Below the pieces are notes generated by a model. It had not been told where the DNA came from, made no database searches, and was given only the letters and a program-made list of their open reading frames with translations. The position numbers and the translations under genes are program-made. Below are positions 11,012-45,791 of a DNA stretch of 48,591 nucleotides, one piece after another. Within the stretch, counting starts at the first letter, position 1. Each line of letters begins with the position of its first letter. The stretch is from a virus, in the UHGV virus genome UHGV-0185643, one strand, 5' to 3'.

Positions 11012-12625
11012 ATGAATATTGTGCATTATGCAGCCATTGGAGCTGTAGCTTTCGTAGTTGTTCTAACAATTTTGGTGATAAACATCATTAAATTAAAGTC
11101 AGCCAAGGCTGATGCAGCAGAAAAGGCGGCAAAACTTGAGCGTTACGCGTCAATCACCAATGCTGAAACAGAAGCTGAACGAATCGTGAATGCAGCTAAG
11201 CAAACCGCAGAAGAGTTAATTATTGATTCGCAGAATAACCTTGACGAGGCAAAAGCTGAAGCAGCCAACACTATTGCAGCCAGTGAAAAAGATGCAAGAT
11301 CTATAACACAGCGTGCGGAGGATATTCTATCAGATGCGCGTTTAGCAGCTAAGCGAATGAACGCAGAGGCGCTGACCGCTGTAGAAACACAAAGAGTCAA
11401 GCGTGCAGAAATTGAAAAACAGATTGATGAATTGCGTAAATCCTATCGTGAGAAAAAAATCACTTACGATGAGCTGACGGAAGCCCTGTCAATTTATAAA
11501 GATGATATGGAATTTGCTGACATGGGGTTCTATGCACCACACTTCGATTTTGATACCTCGGCTAGTTTTCAGGATGCGATCAAGGCATGTCGCGAACGGC
11601 AAAAAAATCTGCTACGTGACAAAACTGAATTTGGCGCAATACATTGCCCTACTGAATGGACGGTTGGCGGCTCTAAAAGTGAAGGTCGGAAAATGACCAC
11701 TCGCGGCATTCAGATGACAGCACGTGCATTCAATGGTGAGTGTGATGCAGCTATTGCAAACTGCACATTTAAAAACGTTTATCAAATGGAGCAAAGAATT
11801 TATAAAGCCTTTGATGCCTTGAATAAGATGAATGAGGTTAACCAGATTTACATCAATCGTGCTTTTTTAGATTTGAAGCTGGATGAACTTCGACTTACAC
11901 ATGAATATCGTTTGAAAAAACAAGAAGAACGAGAAGAACAACGTGAAATCCGCGCTCAGATGGCTGAGGAGAAGCGAGCTCAAGCCGAAATTGATCGTGC
12001 ACTTCGAGAGGCTGAAGATGAAGAACGCCGCGCCCAAAAAGCGTTGGATAAAGCCCGAAAAGAAATGGAATCGAAGCTAGCCCAAATGACAGCTGAGCAA
12101 GTTGAGAAACACCAAGCGAAGGTATCCGAATTAGAACATGCCTTAGAAGAGGCATTGTTGAAAGGCCAAAAAGCTCTTTCTATGGCTCAACAAACTAAAC
12201 GCGGCCACGTGTACGTTATCTCTAATATTGGTTCGTTTGGTGATGATGTTTTTAAAATAGGAATGACACGTCGACTTGACCCTCAAGATCGAGTGGATGA
12301 ACTGGGTAGTGCATCAGTCCCATTCCTGTTCGATGTTCATGCAATGATTTTCAGTGAAGATGCACCAACAATGGAAAACATGCTCCACCAGCGTTTCAAT
12401 GAGCAACGCACTAACCTAGTTAATAAGCGTAAAGAGTTTTTCAATGTAAAATTAAGCGATATCAAAGATGCTGTGTTTGAGATCGCAGGTAAAGATGTAG
12501 ATTTTATCGAAACAGCAACTGCTCAGCATTATTATGAAACAAAGGCAATTCGTAAGCAGAAAGCGGATATCATTTCAGTTGTTCCTCAAGAGGAAAAACT
12601 ACCTAAATTTGCGGACGCAATATAA
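11012..12625 (+). CDS. Membrane-anchored coiled-coil protein (537 aa) with C-terminal T5orf172/GIY-YIG-like (MUG113-type) domain; candidate defence or exclusion effector
   Basis: N-terminal hydrophobic helix IGAVAFVVVLTILVINII; long charged heptad-like segments; C-terminal GHVYVISNIGSFGDDVFKIGMTRRLDPQDRVDEL...EFFNV motif; AGGGA RBS; transcribed against the tail operon; AT-rich. Confidence 0.6.
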   Translation: MNIVHYAAIGAVAFVVVLTILVINIIKLKSAKADAAEKAAKLERYASITNAETEAERIVNAAKQTAEELIIDSQNNLDEAKAEAANTIAASEKDARSITQRAEDILSDARLAAKRMNAEALTAVETQRVKRAEIEKQIDELRKSYREKKITYDELTEALSIYKDDMEFADMGFYAPHFDFDTSASFQDAIKACRERQKNLLRDKTEFGAIHCPTEWTVGGSKSEGRKMTTRGIQMTARAFNGECDAAIANCTFKNVYQMEQRIYKAFDALNKMNEVNQIYINRAFLDLKLDELRLTHEYRLKKQEEREEQREIRAQMAEEKRAQAEIDRALREAEDEERRAQKALDKARKEMESKLAQMTAEQVEKHQAKVSELEHALEEALLKGQKALSMAQQTKRGHVYVISNIGSFGDDVFKIGMTRRLDPQDRVDELGSASVPFLFDVHAMIFSEDAPTMENMLHQRFNEQRTNLVNKRKEFFNVKLSDIKDAVFEIAGKDVDFIETATAQHYYETKAIRKQKADIISVVPQEEKLPKFADAI

Positions 12626-24663: not shown

Positions 24664-26235
24664 TTAAATCCGTAGGTTAGTGACTTTGCCGACTTTCTTC
24701 GGCGGTGAATGTAATACGGCGTAGCGCGTACCATCCCAGTCGTGGTCTTCTTGCTGGGTGTCAACGTCATCAGGGTTCTTGCTGTCGCGAACGAGTACCG
24801 GCACACGGCTTATCCAGCCCCGGCAGTAATCAAACACGTAAAATGCTGGCTTCTCAGGCATGCCTGACTCCAGCTTCTTGCCCTCAATGACGGCCTCGAG
24901 CATGTCAGCAAATAATGCTGCGCCGTTCACGCGCGATCCGGGTTTCTTATTGGATGGCACCCATTTAACGCCCTGCGATTCCATCTTCTGGGCAATGGAT
25001 AGCTCATCATCGCCGGTGTTGTATATAGCCCCATCAGCCGGGCCGGAACTAACCTGCTTGCAGATGCCCGGCATTATGTTCAGTTGTCCCTGCGTCACGC
25101 CGTTGAGCTTTATCTCATCCGGCTCAGCAAGTTCTATTCCCTTAAGACGTTTATCAACCCATGCCACGCCTTTTGCGACGTTCGTCGAGGACATATTCAG
25201 ACCTTTGTTCAGCTCATCAGGCGGGCAGCCGTACCACTCACCTATCAGAATCAGCGACCCGGCAGGTGGGCAGAACTGGCGACCGTCCGACAGCTCTGCG
25301 GCGGTGCCGTCAGTACGCGCCCACCATAGATTAGAGAAGGGTTTCGATTCGCCCCAGTCATGGGAGCGGTCGACGGTCCAGCTATCCGGTATCCGGAACG
25401 GTTTGATAACGTGTAGTGACGCATTCCACAGGTGGTCAAAGCGTCCGCCGCTGGTGACGTCCCAAGAGCCCTCTACCCACGCTTTACGCCGGTTAGGGTC
25501 TTTGATAGCCATCAACGTCGCTATGTATTGCGGATCGAGATACGGGTTCTCTTTAAATGAGCCGTGAATCGCAACGCGGGTAAGCGTTACATCCTCTTCC
25601 CGCTCCGTCTGCGGGTTAAACACCTTCTGCGTTTCGCGAATGATGGTGCCGCGCGGTGCTGGCTCAATGAAGCGCTTCTTCACCCAGGTATGGCCGATGC
25701 CAAACGGGTTCGTCGTGCTGAACGTTTCCAGGGGAATAGGCTTCAGCATGCTACCGTCAGGCAGCGGATAGTTTTCTGGCCGGAACGACGAGCGACGGCA
25801 TGAGAACATCATTTCGTAGAACTCGGCAGACTGCTGTTTTGTAAGTTCGTTAAAGCCGATAAACGGGAACTCCTGTCCGTGATAGTCCCAGTAGTCGCTC
25901 TCTTCTTTCCCGAAGCGGAAAAGCAGCTCCTCTCCGGTCGGCCAAACCCATCGCAATTCACTGGCGGATGCAAGATATCGAGCCCCGTCGTTAAACAGGC
26001 GATACATACGTTTTGACTGGGTAATGATGTCGGTGAGGTTTTTATACTCGGTATCGAAAATGACACCTCGCCAGAACGAGCCATAGCCCAGGCCAACCAG
26101 TCGACGAAAGCGCGCCAACTGCGCAGCAGTCTTACCAGGTCCGCGCGTCCCCTCGTAGAGGATTTCGTTACATGGGCAACTCAGGGAGAGCGATTGCGAC
26201 CCCGGCAAAGGTTTCCAGACGGCTTTATAATTCAT
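24664..26235 (-). CDS. Terminase large subunit
   Basis: 523 aa; N-terminal ATPase region with GTRGPGKT P-loop-like motif; follows the small subunit with a 4-nt overlap. Confidence 0.85.
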   Translation of the reverse strand: MNYKAVWKPLPGSQSLSLSCPCNEILYEGTRGPGKTAAQLARFRRLVGLGYGSFWRGVIFDTEYKNLTDIITQSKRMYRLFNDGARYLASASELRWVWPTGEELLFRFGKEESDYWDYHGQEFPFIGFNELTKQQSAEFYEMMFSCRRSSFRPENYPLPDGSMLKPIPLETFSTTNPFGIGHTWVKKRFIEPAPRGTIIRETQKVFNPQTEREEDVTLTRVAIHGSFKENPYLDPQYIATLMAIKDPNRRKAWVEGSWDVTSGGRFDHLWNASLHVIKPFRIPDSWTVDRSHDWGESKPFSNLWWARTDGTAAELSDGRQFCPPAGSLILIGEWYGCPPDELNKGLNMSSTNVAKGVAWVDKRLKGIELAEPDEIKLNGVTQGQLNIMPGICKQVSSGPADGAIYNTGDDELSIAQKMESQGVKWVPSNKKPGSRVNGAALFADMLEAVIEGKKLESGMPEKPAFYVFDYCRGWISRVPVLVRDSKNPDDVDTQQEDHDWDGTRYAVLHSPPKKVGKVTNLRI

Positions 26236-26807
26236 CCACCAAGAACCTCGCTCTGCTGTTTCTGTGCTGCTGCTTCCCAGCTATCCACATTGTCGCTGGT
26301 CGGTACCAGAATAACGTTGTGGGTCGCCACGACTTTCTGTTCGACCTGCTCTTTGAAGGCCTGCACCTTGATGTGCTTGCCGAGCAGTTCAAGGTTCTTG
26401 ACCTTATCCGGCCACTTAATCTTCTTGAGCAGTGCGGCGGTGTTTCCCTCGGCGGACATCTCGACGACATCCAGCCCGGATAATGTCGTCCTCCAGACCT
26501 TCGGCCACTGTGACACTGGCCTGAGTTCACCGGTCGAGGTCAGGATGTCCAGCACGTCCATCTGGTCTATCTCAACGAGACGATTCAGGACGTATGTCGC
26601 ATTTATGCCAACCAGATCATTGCGTTGCGCTTTAAGTTCGGCAATTCTGGCCTGGATGTCAGGTTTTGACAGGTTTTCGGACGCAGTGCGGTTAGCTGTC
26701 TTTGCGCTGTACCCCGCCCGAATAGCCGCTTGCGTGGCGTTTAAATCGATGAGGTACTCGCGACAGAACATCTCTTGTTTGTCGGTAAGTGCCATGTTTA
26801 CCTTCAA
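26232..26807 (-). CDS. Terminase small subunit (Terminase_2-type)
   Basis: N-terminal LTDKQEMFCREYLIDLNATQAAIRAGYS motif. Confidence 0.8.
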   Translation of the reverse strand: MKVNMALTDKQEMFCREYLIDLNATQAAIRAGYSAKTANRTASENLSKPDIQARIAELKAQRNDLVGINATYVLNRLVEIDQMDVLDILTSTGELRPVSQWPKVWRTTLSGLDVVEMSAEGNTAALLKKIKWPDKVKNLELLGKHIKVQAFKEQVEQKVVATHNVILVPTSDNVDSWEAAAQKQQSEVLGG

Positions 26808-26817
26808 GGAGCAGGAT

Positions 26818-27009
26818 ATGAGTAATTATAAAATTGGTGACAAAGTGAAACTTAAATCCGGCGGACCGGTTATGACTGTTCATGACACCAATGTGCAAGT
26901 CCCAAAATATCGGGGAAACTTACGGTGCCAATGGTTTGCAGGAAAGAAACTTGAAGAAGGTTATTTCCCGGATGACTCACTTGAGGAAGTCGGGGATGAC
27001 GAACAATAA
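26818..27009 (+). CDS. DUF2158/YodC-like small protein (63 aa)
   Basis: Motif KIGDKVKLKSGGPVMTV...CQWF; AAGGA RBS; divergent from the terminase operon. Confidence 0.5.
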   Translation: MSNYKIGDKVKLKSGGPVMTVHDTNVQVPKYRGNLRCQWFAGKKLEEGYFPDDSLEEVGDDEQ

Positions 27010-27268
27010 GGATCAAACCATCCTCTGGATGCTTGAACATCTCAAAAAAGACGGATGTCTATATCAAGATGATGTAGTCGATCATTTGGTTAAAACTAAA
27101 AATGAAGACCTTTTAGTTGAGAATGCCGACGGAAATTTAGCTTTGAGTCGTCAGATTCTTACTTTGTTTATGAAACATACAGCAGACGATGTTGTTTGGG
27201 TTAAGCCGCAGCGTTATTGGCGCTATCGTGTCGCTGAGGATGAACCTGGTCGTGAGGCCCGTGGGTAA
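26996..27268 (+). CDS. Hypothetical protein (90 aa), coupled to the preceding small gene
   Basis: ATG overlapping the upstream stop region; followed by a terminator. Confidence 0.4.
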   Translation: MTNNKDQTILWMLEHLKKDGCLYQDDVVDHLVKTKNEDLLVENADGNLALSRQILTLFMKHTADDVVWVKPQRYWRYRVAEDEPGREARG

Positions 27269-27272
27269 ATTA

Positions 27273-27297
27273 AAGGGCGATCATTCGCCCTTTTCTT
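27273..27297 (+). terminator. Rho-independent terminator
   Basis: Stem AAGGGCGA / TCGCCCTT with TCAT loop and a T-tract. Confidence 0.7.
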
Positions 27298-27571
27298 CGA
27301 CACTCTCTTCCAATGGCGTGAACTGCACGCGCTTTACATCGGCCGGAGCAAAATACAGCCACTGGCCCGTTTCCGTCGCCAGCGGCACAAAACCGTTAAC
27401 CAACTCAGGCTGACGTCTCGACATCTTACCAGTGAAGGTTTCGCCTGTTTAGGTAGTGAAGAGATGTGGTAGATGTAGGACATTGAGCGCCTCTTTATCC
27501 GCTGGTAGGGATATCTAGTTTATTATCCGCTGTAGGGGATAATGAAAAACTCACGTTCAATCATGCAATGT

Positions 27572-27597
27572 AAAAAACCCCGGCAGAGCGGGGTTTG
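27572..27597 (-). terminator. Rho-independent terminator for the 164-aa moron gene
   Basis: Stem CCCCG / CGGGG followed on the minus strand by a U6 run, directly after the stop at 27614. Confidence 0.7.
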
Positions 27598-27613
27598 AAA
27601 GTGCCATTAAGAA

Positions 27614-28108
27614 TTAGAGTTCTCTTTTGAAAATACGCGCAGAGGCTACTTTATCTGTGCCGTTCATTCCATACGGATGTTGCGTATGGTACTTACGAAG
27701 CAGTAAATCGCATACCTCTTGATGTCTTGAGAGAAGAATTTTGTCAACATCACCCTGGTTTTTTGCATCAGGGAATACGTCTAGGTTGACCAAAAACAAA
27801 AAGTCATCTTCACCATGCGGGGTGTGAGCCACATACAGATATCCTTCATCTGCGATTTTAATTGCTGTAAAGCCTGTAACCGATGAAGGCTCAATATATT
27901 TATCAATTTCGCCTGGAGGAAGTAAACCTAGAGCATCACGAACCAATGTGGTGCAGAAAGCCACATCATTAGGATCGTCAAAGTTAACAGCTCGCGTCGC
28001 TTGGTTTTTACCAAATGTCTGAAGAATCTTTTCTTCACTATAACCTTCTTGGTCCAAATATCTAATCCACTGATATAGGTGCGCCCAAGGATTTCTTTTC
28101 CAGCCCAT
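27614..28108 (-). CDS. Hypothetical protein (164 aa), standalone AT-rich moron with its own terminator
   Basis: ORF with adjacent intrinsic terminator; no motif I recognise. Confidence 0.5.
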   Translation of the reverse strand: MGWKRNPWAHLYQWIRYLDQEGYSEEKILQTFGKNQATRAVNFDDPNDVAFCTTLVRDALGLLPPGEIDKYIEPSSVTGFTAIKIADEGYLYVAHTPHGEDDFLFLVNLDVFPDAKNQGDVDKILLSRHQEVCDLLLRKYHTQHPYGMNGTDKVASARIFKREL

Positions 28109-28336
28109 TTCACTCTCCTTTTACCAAAGAAATCCAATAGTACCGTATATATGTTAGTTCTGTGAAATCTGTAAAATTTAATTAAGACACTGTTCTTTGA
28201 CGTAGTCCTGCAGATACCCAACCTGCTTCGTCACTGTGACGATTTGCCCTCTGAGGGTGAAATAATCCTGTTCGACGGCTCAATAAGTTGGGTCGTTACC
28301 ATCATCCTTACCGATGATGTTGTCTGTTTCACTCAC

Positions 28337-28459
28337 TCAGTAGTTAGTATGGTTCTGCATTGTCCCTTCACTAATGTCGTGCTGCGATATAATTTCACGG
28401 AGGGACATCACTCCGGCACAGCACGCCGTCCCGATGGCCTCCCAGTCCGGCTTGCTCAT
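28337..28459 (-). pseudogene. Short ORF (40 aa, MSKPDWEAIG...) resembling the N-terminus of the HTH protein at 29158..29376; likely a gene remnant
   Basis: Shared N-terminal MxKPDW motif; premature stop. Confidence 0.3.
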
Positions 28460-28821
28460 GCTTCTTTCCTATTAAAGTAATCCCATTGATGACCTATGGT
28501 AAGACGGAAGTAAACCTGTCATCTATGCTACCGAGGAAATTCTCGATGGACGAAACAATTACTGAAAATGCTATTAAGCAAGCATATAGCGTTACCATCA
28601 TGCAGCTTTTTAATGTCTATCTAAATTCAGCAAACGATCCCAACGCATCAGCAAGATTTCAGGAAGGGCTTCGTCTTGCGATACAAGTCCGAGATGCCTG
28701 TATGCAAATCGCCTCCCAAAACCATGCGCCATGAATTTATTAGCGGCTATTCACAAACTGCCATTACGATGGGGCTACCCATGGTGATGGCAATAAAAAA
28801 CCGCCCGAAGGCGGCTTGTTA

Positions 28822-29049
28822 TCAATTACTTAATAACTTTTCGATATTGGATGGGATCGGAGCTCCAGGCTCTGCTTTCAGCTTGCTTAGTCTTATGATA
28901 ATAGCCTGCTTCTCCGCCTCACTCGCTGCTTGGTAATAGGGTTTTATCCCTTTAATGATATCGTCAACTGTAGCAGTAGAACCAACGCCAGCGCCTGGCT
29001 CGTTTTTATTCAAAGCGCTGTAAATAATTTCCTCAATAGCCTGATTCAT
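28822..29049 (-). CDS. Hypothetical protein (75 aa)
   Basis: ORF trimmed to the internal Met MNQAIEE; AT-rich region. Confidence 0.35.
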   Translation of the reverse strand: MNQAIEEIIYSALNKNEPGAGVGSTATVDDIIKGIKPYYQAASEAEKQAIIIRLSKLKAEPGAPIPSNIEKLLSN

Positions 29050-29157
29050 AGTTATTACCCAAAATGAGTGGCGACATACCACAACCTGTATATCGATGTA
29101 ATACTCGTTGCCCTGTTCAAACTGCTCATGCTGGGGTTTAAGGATGCCCACGCTTTC

Positions 29158-29376
29158 CTACGCAGTATCGCCGTCAGCCGGTGAGGCAGCTTCAACCACA
29201 ACCACGTGTGACATCTGGCTTTGCGCAGTTTTTTGCGCAGCTGGCTTTTTGATATAGCGCCGCGCAGATGTGTAATTCAGTCCCTGCTCTTCGCACCAAT
29301 CTTTCGGGGAAATACCTGATTTGGCATGGTCGGACAGGAACCGTTGCTGAAGCTCGCCCCAGTCCGGTTTTGCCAT
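29158..29376 (-). CDS. Small putative DNA-binding (HTH) protein
   Basis: MAKPDWGELQQRFLSDHAKSGISPKDWCEEQGLNYTSARRYIKK looks like a helix-turn-helix. Confidence 0.4.
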   Translation of the reverse strand: MAKPDWGELQQRFLSDHAKSGISPKDWCEEQGLNYTSARRYIKKPAAQKTAQSQMSHVVVVEAASPADGDTA

Positions 29377-29466
29377 GATTATTCACCAAGTGATCAATAT
29401 CTATTATCGTAAGGAGGAATAACGTGTATTTTACAAAGTTTGTATTTTTATGCTCAGAGCGTAACC

Positions 29467-29730
29467 ATGATCATCGAAGAAGCTAGAGGCTTTTTATTTC
29501 AACAAGGTATGCTGGAAGAATGTGTTAAACATCCTATTTATATAATTAACGGAAGTACGGATAAGCAGGATGACCCAGTGGTTTTATCTGAATATCTAAT
29601 CATGATAAATAGCAACGGGGACACCATTGCTGGGCGTTCACCAAATAGTCAATGGAGCATGTACCCCATCGCTATTAAAGACACGCACCCTAATATAACA
29701 AGTCATCTGCACGCTATAACTATCCCATAA
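29467..29730 (+). CDS. Hypothetical protein (87 aa), AT-rich, convergent with Rz
   Basis: ORF from an internal ATG; weak RBS. Confidence 0.3.
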   Translation: MIIEEARGFLFQQGMLEECVKHPIYIINGSTDKQDDPVVLSEYLIMINSNGDTIAGRSPNSQWSMYPIAIKDTHPNITSHLHAITIP

Positions 29731-29732
29731 TT

Positions 29733-30293
29733 TTATTGGGCGGCATTCGCGTTGACTTGTCTCAGCATTTCAATTTCCCGGATGCCCGCTAGCTGGTTAT
29801 TCGCCTTCTCAATGGTAGCCAGCAGCGGATTAATCCATAGAACAGCCTGACAGTACGTTATTGAGCTGGCGGCAGCGGTGCTATCACCGGCTGCGTCAGC
29901 GTTCCCGGTATCGGGTTGCATTGCGCTGGCACGTAAACGGTACGCGTATTTGAGCAGCCCACCAGCAACATCAGCAGGCACAGGCAGATCACAGTTTTTT
30001 TCACGTCGTAGAATCTCCCGGTATTTGATGACTGTTCTCTCTGTGCCGGCATCTATCAGCGAATTCATGCGGCTGGCGTTCTCTGCTACTTGGTTAAACC
30101 GGTTGAAGTTGAAAGCCTGTGTAGTTATTACCGTCGCCTGTAATGCGTTATCGCTGCGCAGTACCCGGTTGTCATTCTCGAACGCGGTCAGCGCCGCATT
30201 GCTGCGTACCAGCAGAACACAGAGCACCGCAATGATGGTTACGACGACCACCAGCAGAATCGCGACAATCGTAATTTTGCTGGTTTTCATCAA
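29733..30293 (-). CDS. i-spanin (Rz-like)
   Basis: N-terminal TM helix [23 protein letters not shown]; start overlaps the endolysin stop; contains an embedded lipoprotein ORF in another frame. Confidence 0.6.
29858..30004 (-). CDS. o-spanin (Rz1-like lipoprotein) embedded in the Rz gene, GTG start
   Basis: In-frame GTG gives [19 protein letters not shown], a lipoprotein signal peptide with lipobox LVGC; Pro-rich mature part. Confidence 0.6.
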   Translation of the reverse strand: MKKTVICLCLLMLLVGCSNTRTVYVPAQCNPIPGTLTQPVIAPLPPAQ

Positions 30294-30862
30294 AATACCC
30301 CCGGAACTGATACCGGAATGCCTGGGTTAAGCGGCCCGAGCCCATCACCAAGAACCTGCGGTTTTTCTGCCCACAGGCAAACTTCACGCTCAATCTCACG
30401 CCGGGTGATTAAACCCTTCCACTGTTTGCCACCGGCATATGTCCAGCGCCGTAATTGTTCGCAAGCCCCTTTTGTGTCGCCCAGGTTGATTTTGCGTAGC
30501 AGCGTGGAGGTTTTGAAGTTGCCAGCACCGACGTTGTACGCGAATGAGTAAAGTGCACCCCGCATTGTTGCCGGGATCGGAACCTTGATGTAGGGGTCAA
30601 TCTGACGTGCGATGGTATTCAGATCTTTTGTGAGCAGAATGGCACACTCTGTCTCGGTGTACGTCTTCCCGATTTTGACGTCGCTGCCAGTGTGCCCGTA
30701 GCATACCGTCCAAACCCCAACTACATCCCGATAAGGCTGATAGCGCACACCTTCAAGGCCATCATTACCCGTTGGACCAATAATCAACGCCGCTGCGATA
30801 GCAATAGCGCCAGCGGGTATAGCTGCAATAACGCTATTCTTCAGCTTTGGTGGCATAGCCAT
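30290..30862 (-). CDS. SAR endolysin (GH24, phage-21 R-like lysozyme)
   Basis: N-terminal Gly/Ala-rich weakly hydrophobic SAR helix [20 protein letters not shown] followed by [18 protein letters not shown] with E-8aa-D-5aa-T catalytic spacing. Confidence 0.8.
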
Positions 30863-31112
30863 TGCGCCGATCCTCCCGTTCTTTCCAGCGGAAATACCAG
30901 TTCACTGCACAGGTAATAACTGTGCATGCGATACCGACAATAATTGCCCAGTCGCTCAGGCTTAACCCTGCAATTCTGTCGGCCAACATCCAGGACACCT
31001 CTTTTGCTGTTTTAGCTGTTTCGGCATATGCCTTCGCTGATACACCGCAGCCGGTCAGCGTGGTTCCTGTTCCATATGAAAGTCTGCTGTAAATGGTGCT
31101 CATTCTGGTCAT
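30834..31112 (-). CDS. Pinholin-like holin (S21-like) with dual-start motif MTRM
   Basis: GGAGGTGA SD 7 nt upstream of ATG at 31112; two in-frame Mets (M1, M4) separated by a basic residue; two TMDs; C-terminal basic tail resembling S21. Confidence 0.7.
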
Positions 31113-31220
31113 AGCCTCACCTCCGATTTTTCGGATGGCGCTGTGTGTGATGAAAGGGTCAGGCTTCACGGGCTGGATTTATCAACAAAGCACGTAGTAA
31201 TTGATTCCCGTGAGCCTGAA

Positions 31221-31492: not shown

Positions 31493-31738
31493 CTATCGGC
31501 ATGAAGCGCTGGTACTGCATTGTAGTGTATCAGTAGGCACCCATTTACCATTGCTACATACGAATTTCTTCACTCCAGGAAAACCACCTGAAGTTGCACA
31601 CGTATAGCATTTCTCTTGCCCATTTACACATGCAGATTGTATTTGGTTGGGTGATTTATCAATTGTGGAAGAGTTTGTGCTGCATGCTGATAGAAAAAAC
31701 GCTGATAAAACAGTGGAGTAAAAAATTATCTTATGCAT
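31493..31738 (-). CDS. Cysteine-rich small lipoprotein (81 aa, lipobox LSAC) moron at the Q-lysis junction
   Basis: Signal peptide MHKIIFYSTVLSAFFLSAC; six further Cys; embedded in a strongly AT-rich segment. Confidence 0.6.
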   Translation of the reverse strand: MHKIIFYSTVLSAFFLSACSTNSSTIDKSPNQIQSACVNGQEKCYTCATSGGFPGVKKFVCSNGKWVPTDTLQCSTSASCR

Positions 31739-31943: not shown

Positions 31944-32633
31944 TCAGTTCGGTTTTGCAAGACTTACATCCAAATTTGTCGCCTTTTGTTGTGAACGTGA
32001 TCGCGAAACAGAAAGGAGCGCCTGATTATCAAGGTGCACGAATTCTTGTTTCATCGCCAGCCAGTGCGGGAGGTAGGTTTCAGTCCAAGTTGGCTTTGAT
32101 ACCCCTACCAGTTGCGCCAGCTGCTGGTACTCGTATGTGCTGCGCCCTGCTAGTTCTGCTTTCACATCCTGAGCAGCAAGCCAAATTAACGCCTTCAACC
32201 GTTCGATGGTTTTACCAGCTATCTTTCGAGACCCCATCTGCGACTTGAATTCAGCCCACGCCCACTGAGTAATCAACACCTGACTCTCCCAGCTTACGTT
32301 CTCGCTGTAGTTCCACAGTAGCCAGGCCTTCTGGGGTTCTTCAAGTGACATCAGCGCCCGGCGCCACGATGCGGTGTAGAATTCTACCGGCTGCACCAGG
32401 GGAATATGTGAACCCTTGGCATGCGACTGTTTGCCCGGTATTGGTGGGTTATCCAGCGTAATCATTTTCCCGGTCACTTCATCATACACACGGAGCTTCT
32501 TACGTTTAAACGTTCCCGTATCAAACTGGGCGTTCTCAAGCCACGCCATCAACTGCCCTTTCGTCGCACCACTTAAATCGGCGGTGGCCACCATCAGCTG
32601 CTGGCGCACGTATTCGAGAAATTGAGTGTTCAT
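31944..32633 (-). CDS. Putative late-gene antiterminator (Q-like by position)
   Basis: 229 aa ORF between the nin genes and the lysis cassette; no Zn-finger cysteines, so family assignment is uncertain. Confidence 0.45.
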   Translation of the reverse strand: MNTQFLEYVRQQLMVATADLSGATKGQLMAWLENAQFDTGTFKRKKLRVYDEVTGKMITLDNPPIPGKQSHAKGSHIPLVQPVEFYTASWRRALMSLEEPQKAWLLWNYSENVSWESQVLITQWAWAEFKSQMGSRKIAGKTIERLKALIWLAAQDVKAELAGRSTYEYQQLAQLVGVSKPTWTETYLPHWLAMKQEFVHLDNQALLSVSRSRSQQKATNLDVSLAKPN

Positions 32634-35814: not shown

Positions 35815-36075
35815 TCATTGTTTCTTCTCGTTCTGGGCTGCCATATCCAGATAGCGCGGGTCGGATGCTCTCGGTAATGTCAGACTTTGCTCGCGATAGT
35901 AGCGCACACGCTCCATGAAGTATTCGCGGAGATGCTCTGGCTGATCACGGGCTTCCTGTTCAGCGATAACCGGCATGTTCAGGCGCTCTTTGTCCGCTAC
36001 TCCGGATGCTGCAAAGTCAACGTTAACCTTGTCCTGCTCTTCTTTCGGCTTGGCTGCAATGTTATGGTTGGACAT
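35815..36075 (-). CDS. Hypothetical protein (86 aa)
   Basis: ORF only. Confidence 0.4.
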   Translation of the reverse strand: MSNHNIAAKPKEEQDKVNVDFAASGVADKERLNMPVIAEQEARDQPEHLREYFMERVRYYREQSLTLPRASDPRYLDMAAQNEKKQ

Positions 36076-36165
36076 GGTAATCTCACCGGTTAGCTGAGGG
36101 AACGATTCTCCTCAACTTGATCATTCAATCTGATTTGTAATCTTCCGAAATTTGAAATAACATCT

Positions 36166-36570
36166 TTACTTTAATTTATATATTAAACAATCCACAATAT
36201 CCAAACCATTAACCATACTATTTGAAAGTCGAACTTTGCTATTTTCAATAGAGAATGCTCCTTTCATCATTTTATAAATAAAAGCAGACTCTCCTTTAGC
36301 TTCGATTGCTTCAAGTGGTATGGAATGGTATTTATTTGATCTATTATCTCTATTGATTTGACTTATAAGGCTATAAACGAATGTAGGCCCTTTCTCCTCA
36401 AGATCACTTATTACCAAAATATATTTCCAAGAAAACATTTCCCCATAAAAAAACCACATGGCAGCGGATAAAGCTACTCCTTTCTTCTCTAACTCTTTCA
36501 TTAGAAATTGGCCAGAATTTTCCATAGAGGTCGTCATTGAGTGACCTATTACCAGTGACTTCTTACCCAT
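36166..36570 (-). CDS. Hypothetical protein (134 aa), downstream partner of the HEPN-like gene in an AT-rich cassette
   Basis: ORF overlapping the upstream gene by 22 nt; strongly AT-rich; no recognised motif. Confidence 0.45.
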   Translation of the reverse strand: MGKKSLVIGHSMTTSMENSGQFLMKELEKKGVALSAAMWFFYGEMFSWKYILVISDLEEKGPTFVYSLISQINRDNRSNKYHSIPLEAIEAKGESAFIYKMMKGAFSIENSKVRLSNSMVNGLDIVDCLIYKLK

Positions 36571-41805: not shown

Positions 41806-44736
41806 ATGGAATTTCCATATGTAGTTAAAGCCACACAAAAGTCGGGAAAGCCTGATGCTTTTGTCTGGTTCACTGCAAAAACTGAGGCTCGCGCCAACCT
41901 GATGCTGGACGTTGCTCTGGAAGACGCTGGCATCGAAACCGGCCGTGGTAAGGACTACGCCAAGCCTATCCGCACTGACTTCCCAGTTGTTGATGACCTT
42001 CCGGAAGAAGGTGAAGTTGATTTCACCTGGTGTGATCGTTACGAACTGCAGGACGACGGGCGCATCTGGCTGCCAAAGGCCGCTGGCGACGTTGTCACCA
42101 CTATCCCTGCCGATGTAAAAAATACCGATGAAGTAGCGACATCTGACGAGAATGTATCGTTAGAAAACCGCACTCCAGCAGTCCGTTTTGCCTTCCATCT
42201 GATGAGCGATAAATACCAGACTCACGTCACTAAAGAGCAGCAGCTGGCTGCCAGCGAAATGTCACTGGACGAAAGCAATACCTATCTCCAGAACTTGCTG
42301 CAGGTTAAAAATGATGTTCCTGAAATTGGCGAACTCAGTCTGAATGCTGAGTGGAAAATGATTCAGGCGATTAAAGACATCTTCGAACAGGGTGAAGAGC
42401 ATGAACCTGAAGTGATCGCTGCTTTCATGTCTGACTGGGTGAACGCAGAAGCAGGTGATCGCAATCAACTGGTTGAAGACTGGCGCAGTGGAAAGTTTCC
42501 TCTGCTCAAAACTGAAACCACCAGCGTTGGTGATGAAGTCGGTCCCGAAGAACAATCTCAGCAGCCAGAGCAGCCGAACCTGATCGTCGTAGCCACCCTG
42601 CCATTCCGTCAGCGCGTACTGGCTCAGTTCATCGGTAATGGTGAATATCTCTATCACGTCGATGCCGCGCAGAAAAAAGAGATTGTCCGCCTTGAGATGG
42701 ACACTGATGACACGTACATCCAGAACCTGCTGCTGGCTGCTGAGAATGTGGAGGCATTCAAAAAAGCCATTGAGCACGATATTCATAAAGTCGTGAATGC
42801 CGTTAAGAAAGTCTTCCCTGTCGACGGTAAGAAACCGGAGCTGGCAACAGTTATCCAGTTCCTGACGGTGTGGTTCAAAACTGAATACATCGATCGCGGC
42901 CTGCTGGTCAAGGAATGGCAGAAAGGCAATCGTGTAACAACCATTAATCGCACACCTTCAGGTGCGAACGCCGGCGGCGGCATTGTCTCTGACCGAAAAT
43001 TCCCGCAAACCATTCTCGGTCTGGAGCATGAGATTGCTCTGGCGTTACGTGCCCGTGACCGCGAATTTGATATTTACAACGTCCCTCTGGATATAGAACT
43101 ACAGGCAAACTCCATCATGAATAAGATGGACGATCCCGAATGGCTGGCGACTCGAGAGAGATTCGTTTCAATTCCTGGTGGCCTGGACTACTCACGTGCC
43201 TGCATCATCGCAACAGTAAAAACCACACCAGAGGGGCTTTATGCTGATCCTGTAAAACACCAAGAATATTTGAATAGAGTACTTACGGAAACCGACCACG
43301 CCAACCCAGATCCATTGCTCGTTGATATAGCCTGCGGTCGTTCGTCTATGCCTGTACCTATGAAACAGGAAAAAGTAACGGCCGAAGAGGTAAACAAAAT
43401 TCTTGCAGCTTCCCGCGGAGAATATGTCGAGGGGATTAGTGACCCTACAGACCCGAAATGGATCACAGAAGACCTCGCATTAACCGCCCAACAAATAGAT
43501 GACCGTTCACCACTTAATAAGGAAACCACCAGCAATGTGCAGATGGAAGAAACTGTCAGTGATGAAGAGCAGTCAGGCGAAAGCAGTCTGGAAACTGGTG
43601 AAGAGTCACATACCGGCCAGCAAGCCGATGTAAACCAGAATGCGGATTCTGTCGCCCAAAATAGCGATTTTGTAAACCAAACCGAACCGGTTGCGGCACA
43701 AATCAAGCCAGAATCTCATTCTGACGAACCGGCTGTTGTGTACCCTGCTTACTTTGAGCCAGGCCGCTATGAAGGATTGTCGAACGAGGTTTATCACGCA
43801 GCGAACGGTATCAGCTCAACCCAGGTGAAAGACGCACGTGTCAGCCTGATGTTCTATCACGGCCGTCACGTGACCAAGACTATCCGTCGCGAAAGCAGCG
43901 AGGCGCTGACGTTAGGTAGCCTGGCGCACACCCTGGCCCTGGAGCCCGAAAAGCTCCACGAAGAGTTTGCGGTATTCCCAGGTATTCCGGCTGAGGCGTT
44001 TACCACCACCGACTCCATGAAGGCGTTCATTCGAGAATTTAACGCGGATAAGCCAAAGGCCGAGCAACTGAAGCTCACCGGTAAGAAAGAAGAACTTCAG
44101 GCGGCGATACGCGCGGTCAGCCCGGAGGCCATTTTCGCTGATGAATTTGAGCAGCAATGGCGTGATAGCGTTGATGGGAAAACCATCCTGTCCAGAGAAC
44201 AACTGACGCTGGCCACGGCAATTCAGCAAGCCCTACTGAATCATGAATCAGCCGGGAAACTGCTGCGCCATCCTTCCCGTTCAGTGGAAACCAGTTATTT
44301 CGGGATGGACGACGAAACCGGTCTGGAAGTCCGTGTGCGCCCTGACCTTGAGGTTGAAATCAACGGCGTTCGTATCGGTGTTGACCTGAAGACGATCAGC
44401 ATGGGACGCGTTAAGCAAGACGGTTTGCGCGCCAAACTGCACCGGGAAATCATCGACCGCGACTACCACCTCAGCGCTGGCATGTATTGCTCCGTTGCCG
44501 ACTTTGATCAGTTCTTCTGGATCTTCGTCAACAAAGACGAGGGCTACCACTGGGTGGCGGTAATTGAGGCATCGGAAGATTTGCTCGACCTCGGGCTGCT
44601 GGAGTATCAGCGCACCATGCGTGCACTCGCAAATGCGTATGACACCGATTGCTGGTCTGCACCGATAACCGAAGACTACACCGACGAACTGAACGACTTC
44701 GACCTGCGCTGCCTTGAAGCGCTGCGTCTGGCTTAA
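41806..44736 (+). CDS. recE: RecE-like exonuclease VIII (976 aa)
   Basis: Large protein immediately upstream of a RecT-like gene; acidic linker; C-terminal nuclease-like region; GAGGA RBS. Confidence 0.65.
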   Translation: MEFPYVVKATQKSGKPDAFVWFTAKTEARANLMLDVALEDAGIETGRGKDYAKPIRTDFPVVDDLPEEGEVDFTWCDRYELQDDGRIWLPKAAGDVVTTIPADVKNTDEVATSDENVSLENRTPAVRFAFHLMSDKYQTHVTKEQQLAASEMSLDESNTYLQNLLQVKNDVPEIGELSLNAEWKMIQAIKDIFEQGEEHEPEVIAAFMSDWVNAEAGDRNQLVEDWRSGKFPLLKTETTSVGDEVGPEEQSQQPEQPNLIVVATLPFRQRVLAQFIGNGEYLYHVDAAQKKEIVRLEMDTDDTYIQNLLLAAENVEAFKKAIEHDIHKVVNAVKKVFPVDGKKPELATVIQFLTVWFKTEYIDRGLLVKEWQKGNRVTTINRTPSGANAGGGIVSDRKFPQTILGLEHEIALALRARDREFDIYNVPLDIELQANSIMNKMDDPEWLATRERFVSIPGGLDYSRACIIATVKTTPEGLYADPVKHQEYLNRVLTETDHANPDPLLVDIACGRSSMPVPMKQEKVTAEEVNKILAASRGEYVEGISDPTDPKWITEDLALTAQQIDDRSPLNKETTSNVQMEETVSDEEQSGESSLETGEESHTGQQADVNQNADSVAQNSDFVNQTEPVAAQIKPESHSDEPAVVYPAYFEPGRYEGLSNEVYHAANGISSTQVKDARVSLMFYHGRHVTKTIRRESSEALTLGSLAHTLALEPEKLHEEFAVFPGIPAEAFTTTDSMKAFIREFNADKPKAEQLKLTGKKEELQAAIRAVSPEAIFADEFEQQWRDSVDGKTILSREQLTLATAIQQALLNHESAGKLLRHPSRSVETSYFGMDDETGLEVRVRPDLEVEINGVRIGVDLKTISMGRVKQDGLRAKLHREIIDRDYHLSAGMYCSVADFDQFFWIFVNKDEGYHWVAVIEASEDLLDLGLLEYQRTMRALANAYDTDCWSAPITEDYTDELNDFDLRCLEALRLA

Positions 44737-44750
44737 TGGAGGATTTGACC

Positions 44751-45791
44751 ATGCAAAATACCAACATCATTACGACCGAGCAGGCACCAAACACCATTTC
44801 CGCCAGCAACGCTGTGTTCAACGTGCAGGCACTCGGCCAGCTTACCTCTTTTGCTGAATTGATGGCGCAGTCTGTCGTCACCGTCCCCAAACACCTTGCG
44901 GGGAAACCCGCCGACTGTATGGCTATCGTCATGCAGGCTATGCAGTGGGGAATGAACCCATATGCAGTTGCCCAGAAAACACACCTGGTCAACGGTGTGC
45001 TGGGTTACGAAGCGCAGCTGGTTAACGCAGTGATCTCCAGTTCCAGCGCCATTATTGGCCGCTTCCATTACGAGTACGGCGGTGACTGGGAGAAGATCGC
45101 CGGGAAAAAAGACGGTCGTGATGAATTAGGTCTGTTTATCCGGGTTGGCGCCGTACTGCGCGGAGAAGAAGAAATTACCTGGGGCGAGCCAATCTACCTG
45201 GCAGATATCACCATACGTAACTCGCCACTGTGGAAAACAGCGCCGAAGCAGCAGATCGCTTATCTGGCAGTGAAGTACTGGGCTCGCCTGTACTGCCCAG
45301 AAGTCATCCTCGGCGTCTACAGTCCAGATGAAGTTGAGCCACGCACTGAGAAAGAGATTAACCCGGCGCCGCAACGCGTTAGCCTGGCCGATATTTCAGG
45401 TGACACCGTCACAACCACGCAAAGCGCACAGGAATCGTCGGTAAATATCGACTCTCTTGCCGATGATTTCCGCGAACGAATCGATGCCGCTCAGGATGTT
45501 GATAGTGCAAAAGCACTGCGCGCTGATATCGAAAGCGCGAAGGCCACACTCGGATCAGCCCTGTTCACCGAGCTGAAGAATAAGGCAGTGAAACGCTATT
45601 ACCTGGTTGATTCACGTAACAAGGTTGAGGCCGCGATCAACTCCCTGCCGTCTCCGGACGAACCGGATGCAGCTGAACGGTTTGGGGAAGTTGAGCGAGT
45701 TCTTGCAACTGCGAAACGTCATCTGGGCGACGAGCTGCACGATCAGTTCAGCATCACCCTGGCGGATATGAAACCGGAATACGTTGGCTAA
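44751..45791 (+). CDS. recT: RecT-family single-strand annealing recombinase
   Basis: Coupled to the recE stop (TAATG overlap; GGAGG SD before ATG at 44751); RecT-like core. Confidence 0.65.
   Translation: MQNTNIITTEQAPNTISASNAVFNVQALGQLTSFAELMAQSVVTVPKHLAGKPADCMAIVMQAMQWGMNPYAVAQKTHLVNGVLGYEAQLVNAVISSSSAIIGRFHYEYGGDWEKIAGKKDGRDELGLFIRVGAVLRGEEEITWGEPIYLADITIRNSPLWKTAPKQQIAYLAVKYWARLYCPEVILGVYSPDEVEPRTEKEINPAPQRVSLADISGDTVTTTQSAQESSVNIDSLADDFRERIDAAQDVDSAKALRADIESAKATLGSALFTELKNKAVKRYYLVDSRNKVEAAINSLPSPDEPDAAERFGEVERVLATAKRHLGDELHDQFSITLADMKPEYVG

Follow-up and report, generated by a model that had tools for sequence, protein, structure and literature searches.

The Gap Between the Lysis and Packaging Genes

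We analysed virus genome UHGV-0185643, a stretch of 48,591 nucleotides (nt) that is referred to here as the window and that corresponds to a complete lambdoid-type prophage with its late genes on the minus strand. The subject of this analysis is the interval from 27269 to 29450, which makes up most of the 2.9 kb separating the intact Rz gene, at the end of the lysis cassette, from the functional small terminase gene terS-C (Table 1). An earlier note, made from the sequence alone, had described this interval as an AT-rich accessory block carrying a terminator-flanked gene for a 164-amino acid (aa) protein and duplicated fragments of a helix-turn-helix (HTH) gene, and had proposed that cargo was repeatedly inserted and decayed at a recombination hotspot. 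The gene for the 164-aa protein (p164) and its own intrinsic terminator were found as described. The gap also holds pieces which had escaped the earlier note: a 3' stump of an Rz gene (Rz-B), a frameshifted gene of the phrog_6581 family, an intact gene of the phrog_18074 family and an 87-aa open reading frame (ORF) on the opposite strand (orf87). Two 5' stumps of small terminase genes (terS-A and terS-B), the Rz-B stump and the frameshifted gene represent four decayed pieces in a single block. The divergent DUF2158-like pair of the earlier note does exist and its terminator lies inside the interval, but the pair itself (26818-27268) is located just outside it.

The block is moderately AT-rich, as its GC content is 0.446 compared to 0.506 for the whole window, which places it at the 7.6th percentile of equal-sized windows. 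The GC content divides the block into two classes, with core-like values for the stumps (0.52-0.54) and lower values for the intact cargo (0.39-0.43).

Two ORFs Are Stumps of Different Small Terminase Families

Two ORFs of 72 and 40 aa had been grouped as duplicated HTH-gene fragments, the longer one intact and the shorter one truncated, on the basis of a common MxKPDW motif. Both ORFs are present and both start with M-x-KPDW, but they have only these 6 residues, or 26 nt at 77% identity, in common. As judged from their homologies, they are not duplicated regulators but stumps of two different terS families (phrog_51/phrog_32222 and phrog_1206, respectively).

For the 72-aa ORF, matches cover the first 54 positions of phrog_51 (E = 1e-21) and of phrog_370, and positions 1-84 of phrog_32222. 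An alignment with codons 1-96 of the 235-aa terS of E. coli D7 shows a single frame from 29376 to 29113 with 75% aa identity, which reads through the in-frame stop codon at 29158-29160 and ends at 'GILKPQHEQFEQ', where the Terminase_2 core of the D7 protein starts. No Pfam match to Terminase_2 was obtained for the 72-aa ORF, and the homology is gone at 29113 where this core would start. The stump (GC content 0.538) is 83% identical at the nucleotide level to the 5' end of a 329-aa terS in another prophage (locus L001), and further terS matches were found in Klebsiella, Yersinia and E. coli. The large terminase gene lies 2.9 kb away, beyond another intact terS. Because homology to the terS frame persists past the stop codon, the 72-aa ORF is a terS 5' stump with a nonsense mutation and not an intact gene.

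The 40-aa ORF matches only positions 4-39 of the 207 positions of phrog_1206. It aligns with residues 1-38 of the 200-aa terS of E. coli XJ55 (68% aa identity), and its nucleotide sequence (GC content 0.537) shares 83-86% identity with the 5' ends of terS genes in HK639, SEN34 and Klebsiella phages. It thus falls far short of the full length of about 200 aa of a HK639/SEN34-type small terminase.

An alternative is that both ORFs encode functional small HTH proteins, exapted from terS N-terminal domains, which could act as regulators or as packaging-specificity or interference factors. The 72-aa ORF retains the whole conserved N-terminal region (phrog_51 residues 1-54), scores 31.1 bits with the NCBIfam model of an IS66 TnpA-like HTH accessory protein, above the cut-off of 28, and is unchanged in several assemblies. 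These assemblies, however, all represent the same prophage, and an alignment to the terS frame that continues beyond the stop codon is the mark left by a recent nonsense mutation, which a gene dedicated to a short product would not bear. The 40-aa ORF breaks off inside the conserved N-terminal region, and terS stumps in other genomes vary in length (27-279 nt) and are mostly unannotated. We consider exaptation very unlikely.

A separate candidate explanation was that terS-C had been split by an insertion, as positions 1-54 of phrog_51 are found in the 72-aa ORF and positions 85-231 in terS-C. This was ruled out by the stand-alone 187-aa homologues of terS-C, which are annotated in E. coli and are the normal form there and across Enterobacterales, in whose genomes 273 relatives were found.

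An Rz Stump, a Frameshifted Gene and Terminators

The Rz-B stump is situated directly upstream of the p164 gene and is joined to the terS-B stump within approximately 50 nt. The translation of 28178-28279 (AVEQDYFTLRGQIVTVTKQVGYLQDYVKEQCLN followed by a stop codon) corresponds to the C-terminus of the Rz protein in L001, and the stump has further matches at the 3' ends of E. coli and Klebsiella phage genes labelled 'lysis protein'. In-frame stop codons precede it, and the N-terminal transmembrane segment and coiled-coil body of a spanin are missing.

The phrog_6581 gene has an intact length of 72 aa in XJ55 and 71 aa in 21AR0133, as taken from the alignment. In the window, what remains after the frameshift is a 47-aa ORF that starts from an internal methionine (27281-27424) and covers profile positions 21-65 only. 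Two direct repeats of 19 nt (repeat family D4) are found 12 nt upstream of the start of this gene; they are spaced by 28 nt, each is partly palindromic, and they are possibly an operator. A listed 109-aa ORF consists of the intact phrog_18074 gene preceded by an N-terminal read-in ('GILKPQHEQFEQ') from the terS-A stump. In annotation, none of the ORFs of 72, 40, 47 and 109 aa should be treated as a genuine small gene.

Three terminator hairpins are real (Table 1), and a scan of the region identified 11 terminator-like sites where 3.3 were expected from shuffled sequences. For the hairpin between the converging phrog_6581 remnant and DUF6953 gene, the folding energy is -14.9 kcal/mol on one strand and -14.4 kcal/mol on the other (z of approximately -3.5).

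Table 1. Features of the gap between Rz and terS-C and of the surrounding prophage, with positions in the window.
Feature	Position	Strand	Description
TerL gene	24664-26235		Large terminase gene, after terS-C
terS-C	26232-26807	-	Functional small terminase, Terminase_2 (Pfam, E = 1e-40), 187-191 aa; downstream block boundary
DUF2158/YodC gene	26818-27009	+	Pfam, E = 5e-16; overlaps DUF6953 gene
DUF6953 gene	26996-27268	+	Pfam, E = 8.5e-23; the pair is divergent from terS-C
Bidirectional terminator hairpin	27272-27293	.	Between the converging phrog_6581 remnant and DUF6953 gene
phrog_6581 gene, frameshifted	27281-27483	-	1-nt deletion near 27460, after about codon 8
Direct repeats, 2 x 19 nt	27495-27513 and 27523-27541	.	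TTATCCGCTG(G)TAGGGATA, repeat family D4
p164 intrinsic terminator	27575-27596	-	Hairpin and T-run, from scan and fold
p164 gene	27614-28108	-	164-aa cargo gene
Candidate sigma-70-like promoter of p164	28137-28166	-	TTCACA-18-TACTAT, 28 nt before the ATG
Rz-B stump	28178-28292	-	Last 33 codons and stop codon of a different Rz spanin
terS-B stump (40-aa ORF)	28337-28459	-	First 38 codons of a HK639/SEN34/XJ55-type small terminase (about 200 aa)
82-aa ORF (orf82)	28486-28734	+	Within the spacer 28460-28754
Conserved terminator element, about 60 nt	28755-28818	-	Hairpin 28798-28817 and T-run, from scan and fold (z = -3.2)
phrog_18074 gene, 74 aa	28822-29046	-	Intact cargo; E = 2e-38, profile positions 1-75; GC content 0.427
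terS-A stump (72-aa ORF)	29113-29376 (ORF 29158-29376)	-	About the first 88 codons of a 235-329-aa terS
87-aa ORF (orf87)	29467-29730	+	Convergent with Rz; GC content 0.39; called as a gene in L010/L011
Rz-type i-spanin gene, intact	29733-30293	-	End of the functional lysis cassette; upstream block boundary
Rz1-like lipoprotein ORF	29858-30052		Embedded in Rz
Lysis cassette	29733-31169		Holin, lysozyme, Rz/Rz1
Antiterminator Q gene	31944-32633
RecE/RecT genes	41806-45791		Encoded by the prophage
Integrase gene	46312-47577		

Gene Content Varies Among Relatives and Breakpoints Recur

The region was compared with 80 loci with terS-C homologues from Enterobacterales genomes, 36 of which have a recognisable Rz gene. 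In these 36 genomes the distance between Rz and terS-C ranges from 454 to 4074 nt (median 1409), compared to 2938 nt in the window. The gap does not hold a conserved set of genes for packaging or lysis, since relatives with similar terS and terL genes carry other genes there. In E. coli LR-28 and 21AR0133, terS/terL are 87-88% identical to the window at the nucleotide level and the genes between terS and the lysis cassette are entirely different, encoding Rha or KilA-N together with other hypothetical proteins.

Three short sites recur as breakpoints at this junction, the stretches in between being variable: the 3' end of Rz, a terminator element of approximately 60 nt and the 5' ends of terS genes. 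Extra Rz 3' stumps were found in L030, L037, L041, L052 and L106. The terminator element is present in at least 9 loci with 86-96% nucleotide identity (among them L008, L022, L029, L037, L041, L052, where it occurs twice, L065 and L106), and terS-B 5' stumps of 27-120 nt were found in L029, L046, L052 and L106. In Citrobacter murliniae (L052), the junction between terS-B and Rz-B is 85.7% identical to that of the window over 279 nt and the cargo behind it differs. The stretch 28433-28800 is 94% identical in a prophage of a Buttiauxella metagenome-assembled genome (L046), where orf82 is conserved at 96% aa identity and the flanks are different. In L106, 97.7% identity to window positions 26102-28459 extends over 2.36 kb and ends exactly at the ATG of the terS-B stump, upstream of which L106 has a terS-C 5' stump instead. 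The mirror case was found in Enterobacter soli (L065, 6001-8463), in which a terS-C fragment (residues 3-143 of 191) is located upstream of an intact 329-aa terS-A; either terS type can therefore become the stump. A terS-A-like stump, unannotated, is also present at the junction in E. coli E24377A. That these breakpoints recur in other genera suggests that particular short sequences channel recombination here.

The corresponding Rz-gene 3 region of P22 and BTP1 (rha, pid, DUF2560), phages of a related type, is the same junction, with accessory genes and with a Terminase_2-type terS stump. A stretch in P22 (40745-41005) and BTP1 (L024, 470-716) that is approximately 79% identical at the nucleotide level to the 5' half of the window terS-C lies between the DUF2560 gene and pid. 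This stump is unannotated in the records compared, and the P22 stump counts as undescribed only in this sense. P22 and BTP1 differ from the window in their cargo (the Rha antirepressor and Pid) and in having one stump instead of three.

Exact copies of the window proteins are on record as 'MAG TPA: Caudoviricetes sp.', which could be taken as a hint that the arrangement is a chimera of metagenome assembly. However, independent assemblies from JGI and ENA (L010 and L011) agree with it at 99.98-100% identity over 5.3 kb, and it therefore is not a chimera. The gene order of the window is repeated in shorter contigs from other samples (Logan and NCBI contigs and IMG/VR contig L105), and neighbouring block genes are present in the isolate genome of Citrobacter sp. 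Cc227 (OGV54_20910, OGV54_20920). An assembly artefact is next to impossible.

A Model of Stacked Junction Units

The proposal of repeated gain and decay of cargo at a recombination hotspot is supported by the variable content, the four decayed pieces and the breakpoints that recur in other genomes. The interval is very probably a mosaic junction of lysis and packaging modules which grew by at least two out-of-register recombinations. Of the insertion process proposed earlier, the repetition of events stands, but the pattern looks like out-of-register recombination of whole junction units and not like point insertion of single genes.

In the direction of late transcription, the first unit would consist of the intact Rz gene, the 87-aa ORF and the terS-A stump. 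The second would comprise the phrog_18074 gene, the conserved terminator element, the orf82 spacer and the terS-B stump, and the third the Rz-B stump, p164 with its terminator, the frameshifted phrog_6581 gene, the DUF6953/DUF2158 pair and the functional terS-C. Such units could be stacked if heterologous lambdoid prophages cross over between a site within or ahead of the terS 5' end in one of them and a site in, after or upstream of the Rz 3' end in the other. A viable hybrid would keep an intact copy each of the lysis cassette and the terminase and would have both cargo regions concatenated, while the superfluous gene ends would be left as stumps and subsequently decay. The recurrent anchors of crossover would be the Rz 3' end (approximately 115 nt), the terminator element of approximately 60 nt and the initial 30-150 nt of terS, in which the stretch that encodes MxKPDW is contained. 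Single-strand-annealing proteins of phages could plausibly use these anchors for relaxed homologous recombination, and RecE/RecT are encoded by this prophage. The stumps with their homologies, the variation among relatives and the recurring breakpoints are shown here; how the events were ordered, and that single-strand-annealing recombinases took part, is inferred.

A 'boundary/linker sequence' idea for lambdoid modules was reportedly put forward by Clark et al. in 2001. Relaxed homologous recombination by phage Rad52-like/RecT recombinases is described as giving rise to mosaics (PMC3945230). The junction resembles such mosaics in that short, diverged, conserved stretches flank the exchanged segments and in that the prophage encodes RecE/RecT. 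It differs from them in at least one joint, that between terS-B and Rz-B, which is without homology and may be illegitimate, and a role of RecET at these joints is putative.

Several points weigh against the stacking of units as described. The order and number of events are a reconstruction, and some joints could stem from illegitimate end-joining or from insertion of a single cassette instead of unequal homologous exchange. The joint between terS-B and Rz-B (28293-28345) has no homology to either parent, which fits illegitimate joining at that site. A complete N-terminal HTH region is retained in the 72-aa product, whose synthesis would in principle still be possible. With respect to p164, the region contains 3 promoter-like matches compared to 5.9 expected from shuffled sequences; with the chance level not exceeded, an independent promoter of p164 is a candidate only.

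It is highly improbable that the block is instead a single mobile cassette (a transposon, an integron-like element or a satellite remnant) that was inserted once between the lysis genes and terS. The GC content of the block is below that of its flanks, it has several terminators, and mobile DNA does reach this site, as exemplified by an element of the IS3 insertion sequence (IS) family in a p164 homologue (L114-L116). The GC profile is nevertheless patchy, with core-like stumps and AT-rich cargo, and the components of the block occur separately and in other combinations in other prophages. The Pfam, PHROGs and NCBIfam searches revealed no integrase, transposase or recombinase among the block genes, and a repeat search identified no flanking direct or inverted repeats above chance length.

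Under the model of stacked junction units, the stumps record at least two earlier exchanges of packaging or lysis modules, which makes the region a well-resolved case of cargo build-up in a temperate phage. The concepts of phage mosaicism, of variable moron regions within late operons and of recombination at short stretches of conserved sequence are already established. Specific to this locus are the three stacked units, the four decay products, the anchors recurring across genera and a new protein family. The lysis-packaging gap of this enterobacterial prophage is a clear but ordinary case of phage mosaicism. Current understanding is not overturned.

The 164-aa Protein Belongs to a Rare Family

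The p164 gene has a GC content of 0.416 compared to 0.53-0.55 in the flanking core genes. Only 6 clusters among 5.8 billion proteins match p164, and an exhaustive profile search retrieved approximately 15 genuine relatives; an alignment scan of species-representative genome contigs found none. Four proteins that were considered as relatives (P0020, P0023, P0025 and P0027) were rejected as spurious, being long proteins with Ig, fn3, FG-GAP or GA repeats.

The profile and structure searches which the earlier note had called for indicated that p164 is a rare protein family without a match to a known family. In the AlphaFold2 model of p164, which is confident (predicted local distance difference test score 87), a helical N-terminal domain is followed by a C-terminal domain of beta-beta-beta-alpha-alpha-beta order. 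A Foldseek search with this model against PDB and BFVD gave no match at E <= 0.001, and a profile of 20 family members gave no match to PDB sequences at E <= 1. The C-terminal half weakly resembles the DUF1488 fold (PF07369; PDB 2gpi, Shew_3726), the hallmark of which is a mixed sheet of four strands, the last two being connected by a left-handed crossover. The sequence identity to DUF1488 is 5%, the 20 family members did not match the DUF1488 Pfam model at E <= 5, and p164 has an extra helical N-terminal domain of approximately 70 residues; a literature search on DUF1488 returned no functional data. The protein is soluble and acidic, with an isoelectric point of approximately 5 across the family. 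Two relatives carry an XRE-type HTH N-terminal to the p164-type domain, one of them in a region resembling an integrative and conjugative element (ICE). No recurrent partner gene was found for the HTH-fused relatives, which were located in the ICE-like region (P0011) and on short contigs (P0010, P0014).

In every phage context in which the upstream region is visible, the p164 gene follows the lysis cassette on the late strand, mostly 70-160 nt past the spanin gene. The exceptions in distance are L007, which has an opposite-strand ORF in between, and L112, with a gap of approximately 1 kb. The gene precedes terS-A in L107, L110 and L115, terS-B in L111 and L112, terS-C in the window and in L106, and a HNH/Terminase_4 module in L006 and L007. 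The order in L111 and L112 (Rz, p164, phrog_6581, intact terS-B) looks like an undisturbed form of the third junction unit of the window. The terminator 3' of the p164 homologue is the same in L001, and different hairpin sequences are found in L006 and L007. Several divergent homologues, whose flanks are unrelated, have hexamers resembling -35 and -10 sequences at 28-35 nt from the ATG on its upstream side; this is weak evidence of a promoter, because promoter-like matches in the region stay within chance. The gene is absent from L008, L009 and L022 and from most of the 80 terS-C loci.

Known lambdoid morons are units of promoter, gene and terminator, examples being those of HK97/HK022 and lambda bor and lom (PMC3594210). 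In the same way, the cargo genes described here are AT-rich extra genes wedged among late-operon genes and absent from close relatives. For p164, the downstream terminator, the absence from relatives and the deviant composition were all found, and with its promoter-like site, gene and terminator it has the predicted make-up of a typical moron unit. Unlike in the known morons, several units are stacked here and separated by stumps of core genes, and the promoter is a candidate only.

The position of the gene would also suit a dedicated late function, for instance as a helper in lysis timing or packaging, instead of cargo expressed in the lysogen. It is found on the late strand without exception, right behind the lysis cassette. 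Late transcription under Q antitermination would include it, and the promoter of its own is a candidate. Against this stand the lack of p164 in most relatives with the same lysis or terminase modules, its occurrence with three lysis cassettes and three terS types with its own terminator in every context, and the non-phage contexts in which the domain is fused to XRE-type HTH domains. In addition, a homologue has been inactivated by an insertion: in L115 (1755-3119), and also in L114 and L116, it is cut after approximately codon 61 by an IS3-family element with orfA and orfB on the strand opposite to the homologue (these are partial contigs, from which phage viability cannot be read). A late accessory function is unlikely.

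The best guess for p164 is a soluble protein-binding or regulatory factor expressed from the prophage, possibly with a role in defence, although any specific role is tentative at best. A precedent for a defence moron next to terminase genes is the Tab/anti-Tab moron of Pseudomonas phage JBD26, which the prophage expresses from a promoter belonging to the moron (PMC10884400). Like Tab, p164 is a small ORFan in a late operon. The two have no sequence or structural similarity, and Tab is located between terS and terL on the opposite strand.

A more far-reaching view combines these elements: the lysis-terS junction would be an integrase-free platform for cassette exchange, and p164 a new prophage-expressed factor in defence, anti-defence or regulation. 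The three conserved arms would persist as substrates for RecT-type relaxed recombination, with accessory genes being swapped and stacked between them, and p164 would define a new domain family consisting of a helical N-domain and a DUF1488-like C-domain, which elsewhere is fused to an XRE HTH. As a whole, this combination is rather doubtful. For functional screens of prophage cargo, p164, which is rare and confidently folded, and the DUF2158/DUF6953 pair are candidates.

In L001-L005 and L107 (approximately 7075-8390 in L001), a 96%-identical p164 is followed by a 348-358-aa gene with a RelA_SpoT domain, whose product resembles a CapRel-type fused toxin-antitoxin. This gene is followed by a 67-aa HEAT-repeat ORF on the other strand and then by an intact 329-aa terS.

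Other Cargo Genes and Prophage Context

The 87-aa ORF has one matching protein cluster among 5.8 billion proteins, all of it from Citrobacter. Neither orf87 nor orf82 had a tblastn match in phage records, and p164, orf82 and orf87 had no match in Pfam, PHROGs, PADLOC or NCBIfam; it is uncertain whether orf82 is coding. In PADLOC, none of the block proteins matched a defence model at E <= 0.1 except for a marginal match of the HTH of the terS-A stump to AbiEi (E = 0.013).

The DUF2158/DUF6953 pair is present upstream of terS-C homologues in few loci (Atlantibacter L043, Yersinia L051 and Xenorhabdus L057), and YodC adjoins terS in many E. coli prophages. Only 22 nt (26796-26817) separate the terS-C ATG (26795) from the divergent DUF2158 start (26818); a promoter serving this pair would therefore have to be located within the coding sequence of terS.

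Most close relatives of the window proteins come from Citrobacter; others are found in Klebsiella aerogenes and Enterobacter. The window Rz has 88% aa identity to that of a Citrobacter pasteurii prophage (L038), and in the identical contigs L010 and L011 it follows a holin gene and a Phage_lysozyme gene. The window contains no tRNA, and an Rfam search (E <= 1) gave two chance snoRNA matches only.

Outside the gap, three further places in the prophage were recorded. In the tail-gene region, an AT-rich island (GC content approximately 0.42, at approximately 10.5-13 kb) contains a gene for a 537-aa protein with DUF4041 and T5orf172/MUG113 domains (11012-12625, plus strand, opposite to the late genes), which is another moron-like insertion, possibly related to defence. 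An 81-aa ORF with a lipoprotein-like signal sequence (MHKIIFYSTVLSAFFLSAC...) is located on the minus strand at 31493-31738, in an island of 37% GC between Q and the holin gene, and gave no Pfam match. The most AT-rich 500-bp bin of the window (GC content 0.35) is found in the early region at 36001-36500.

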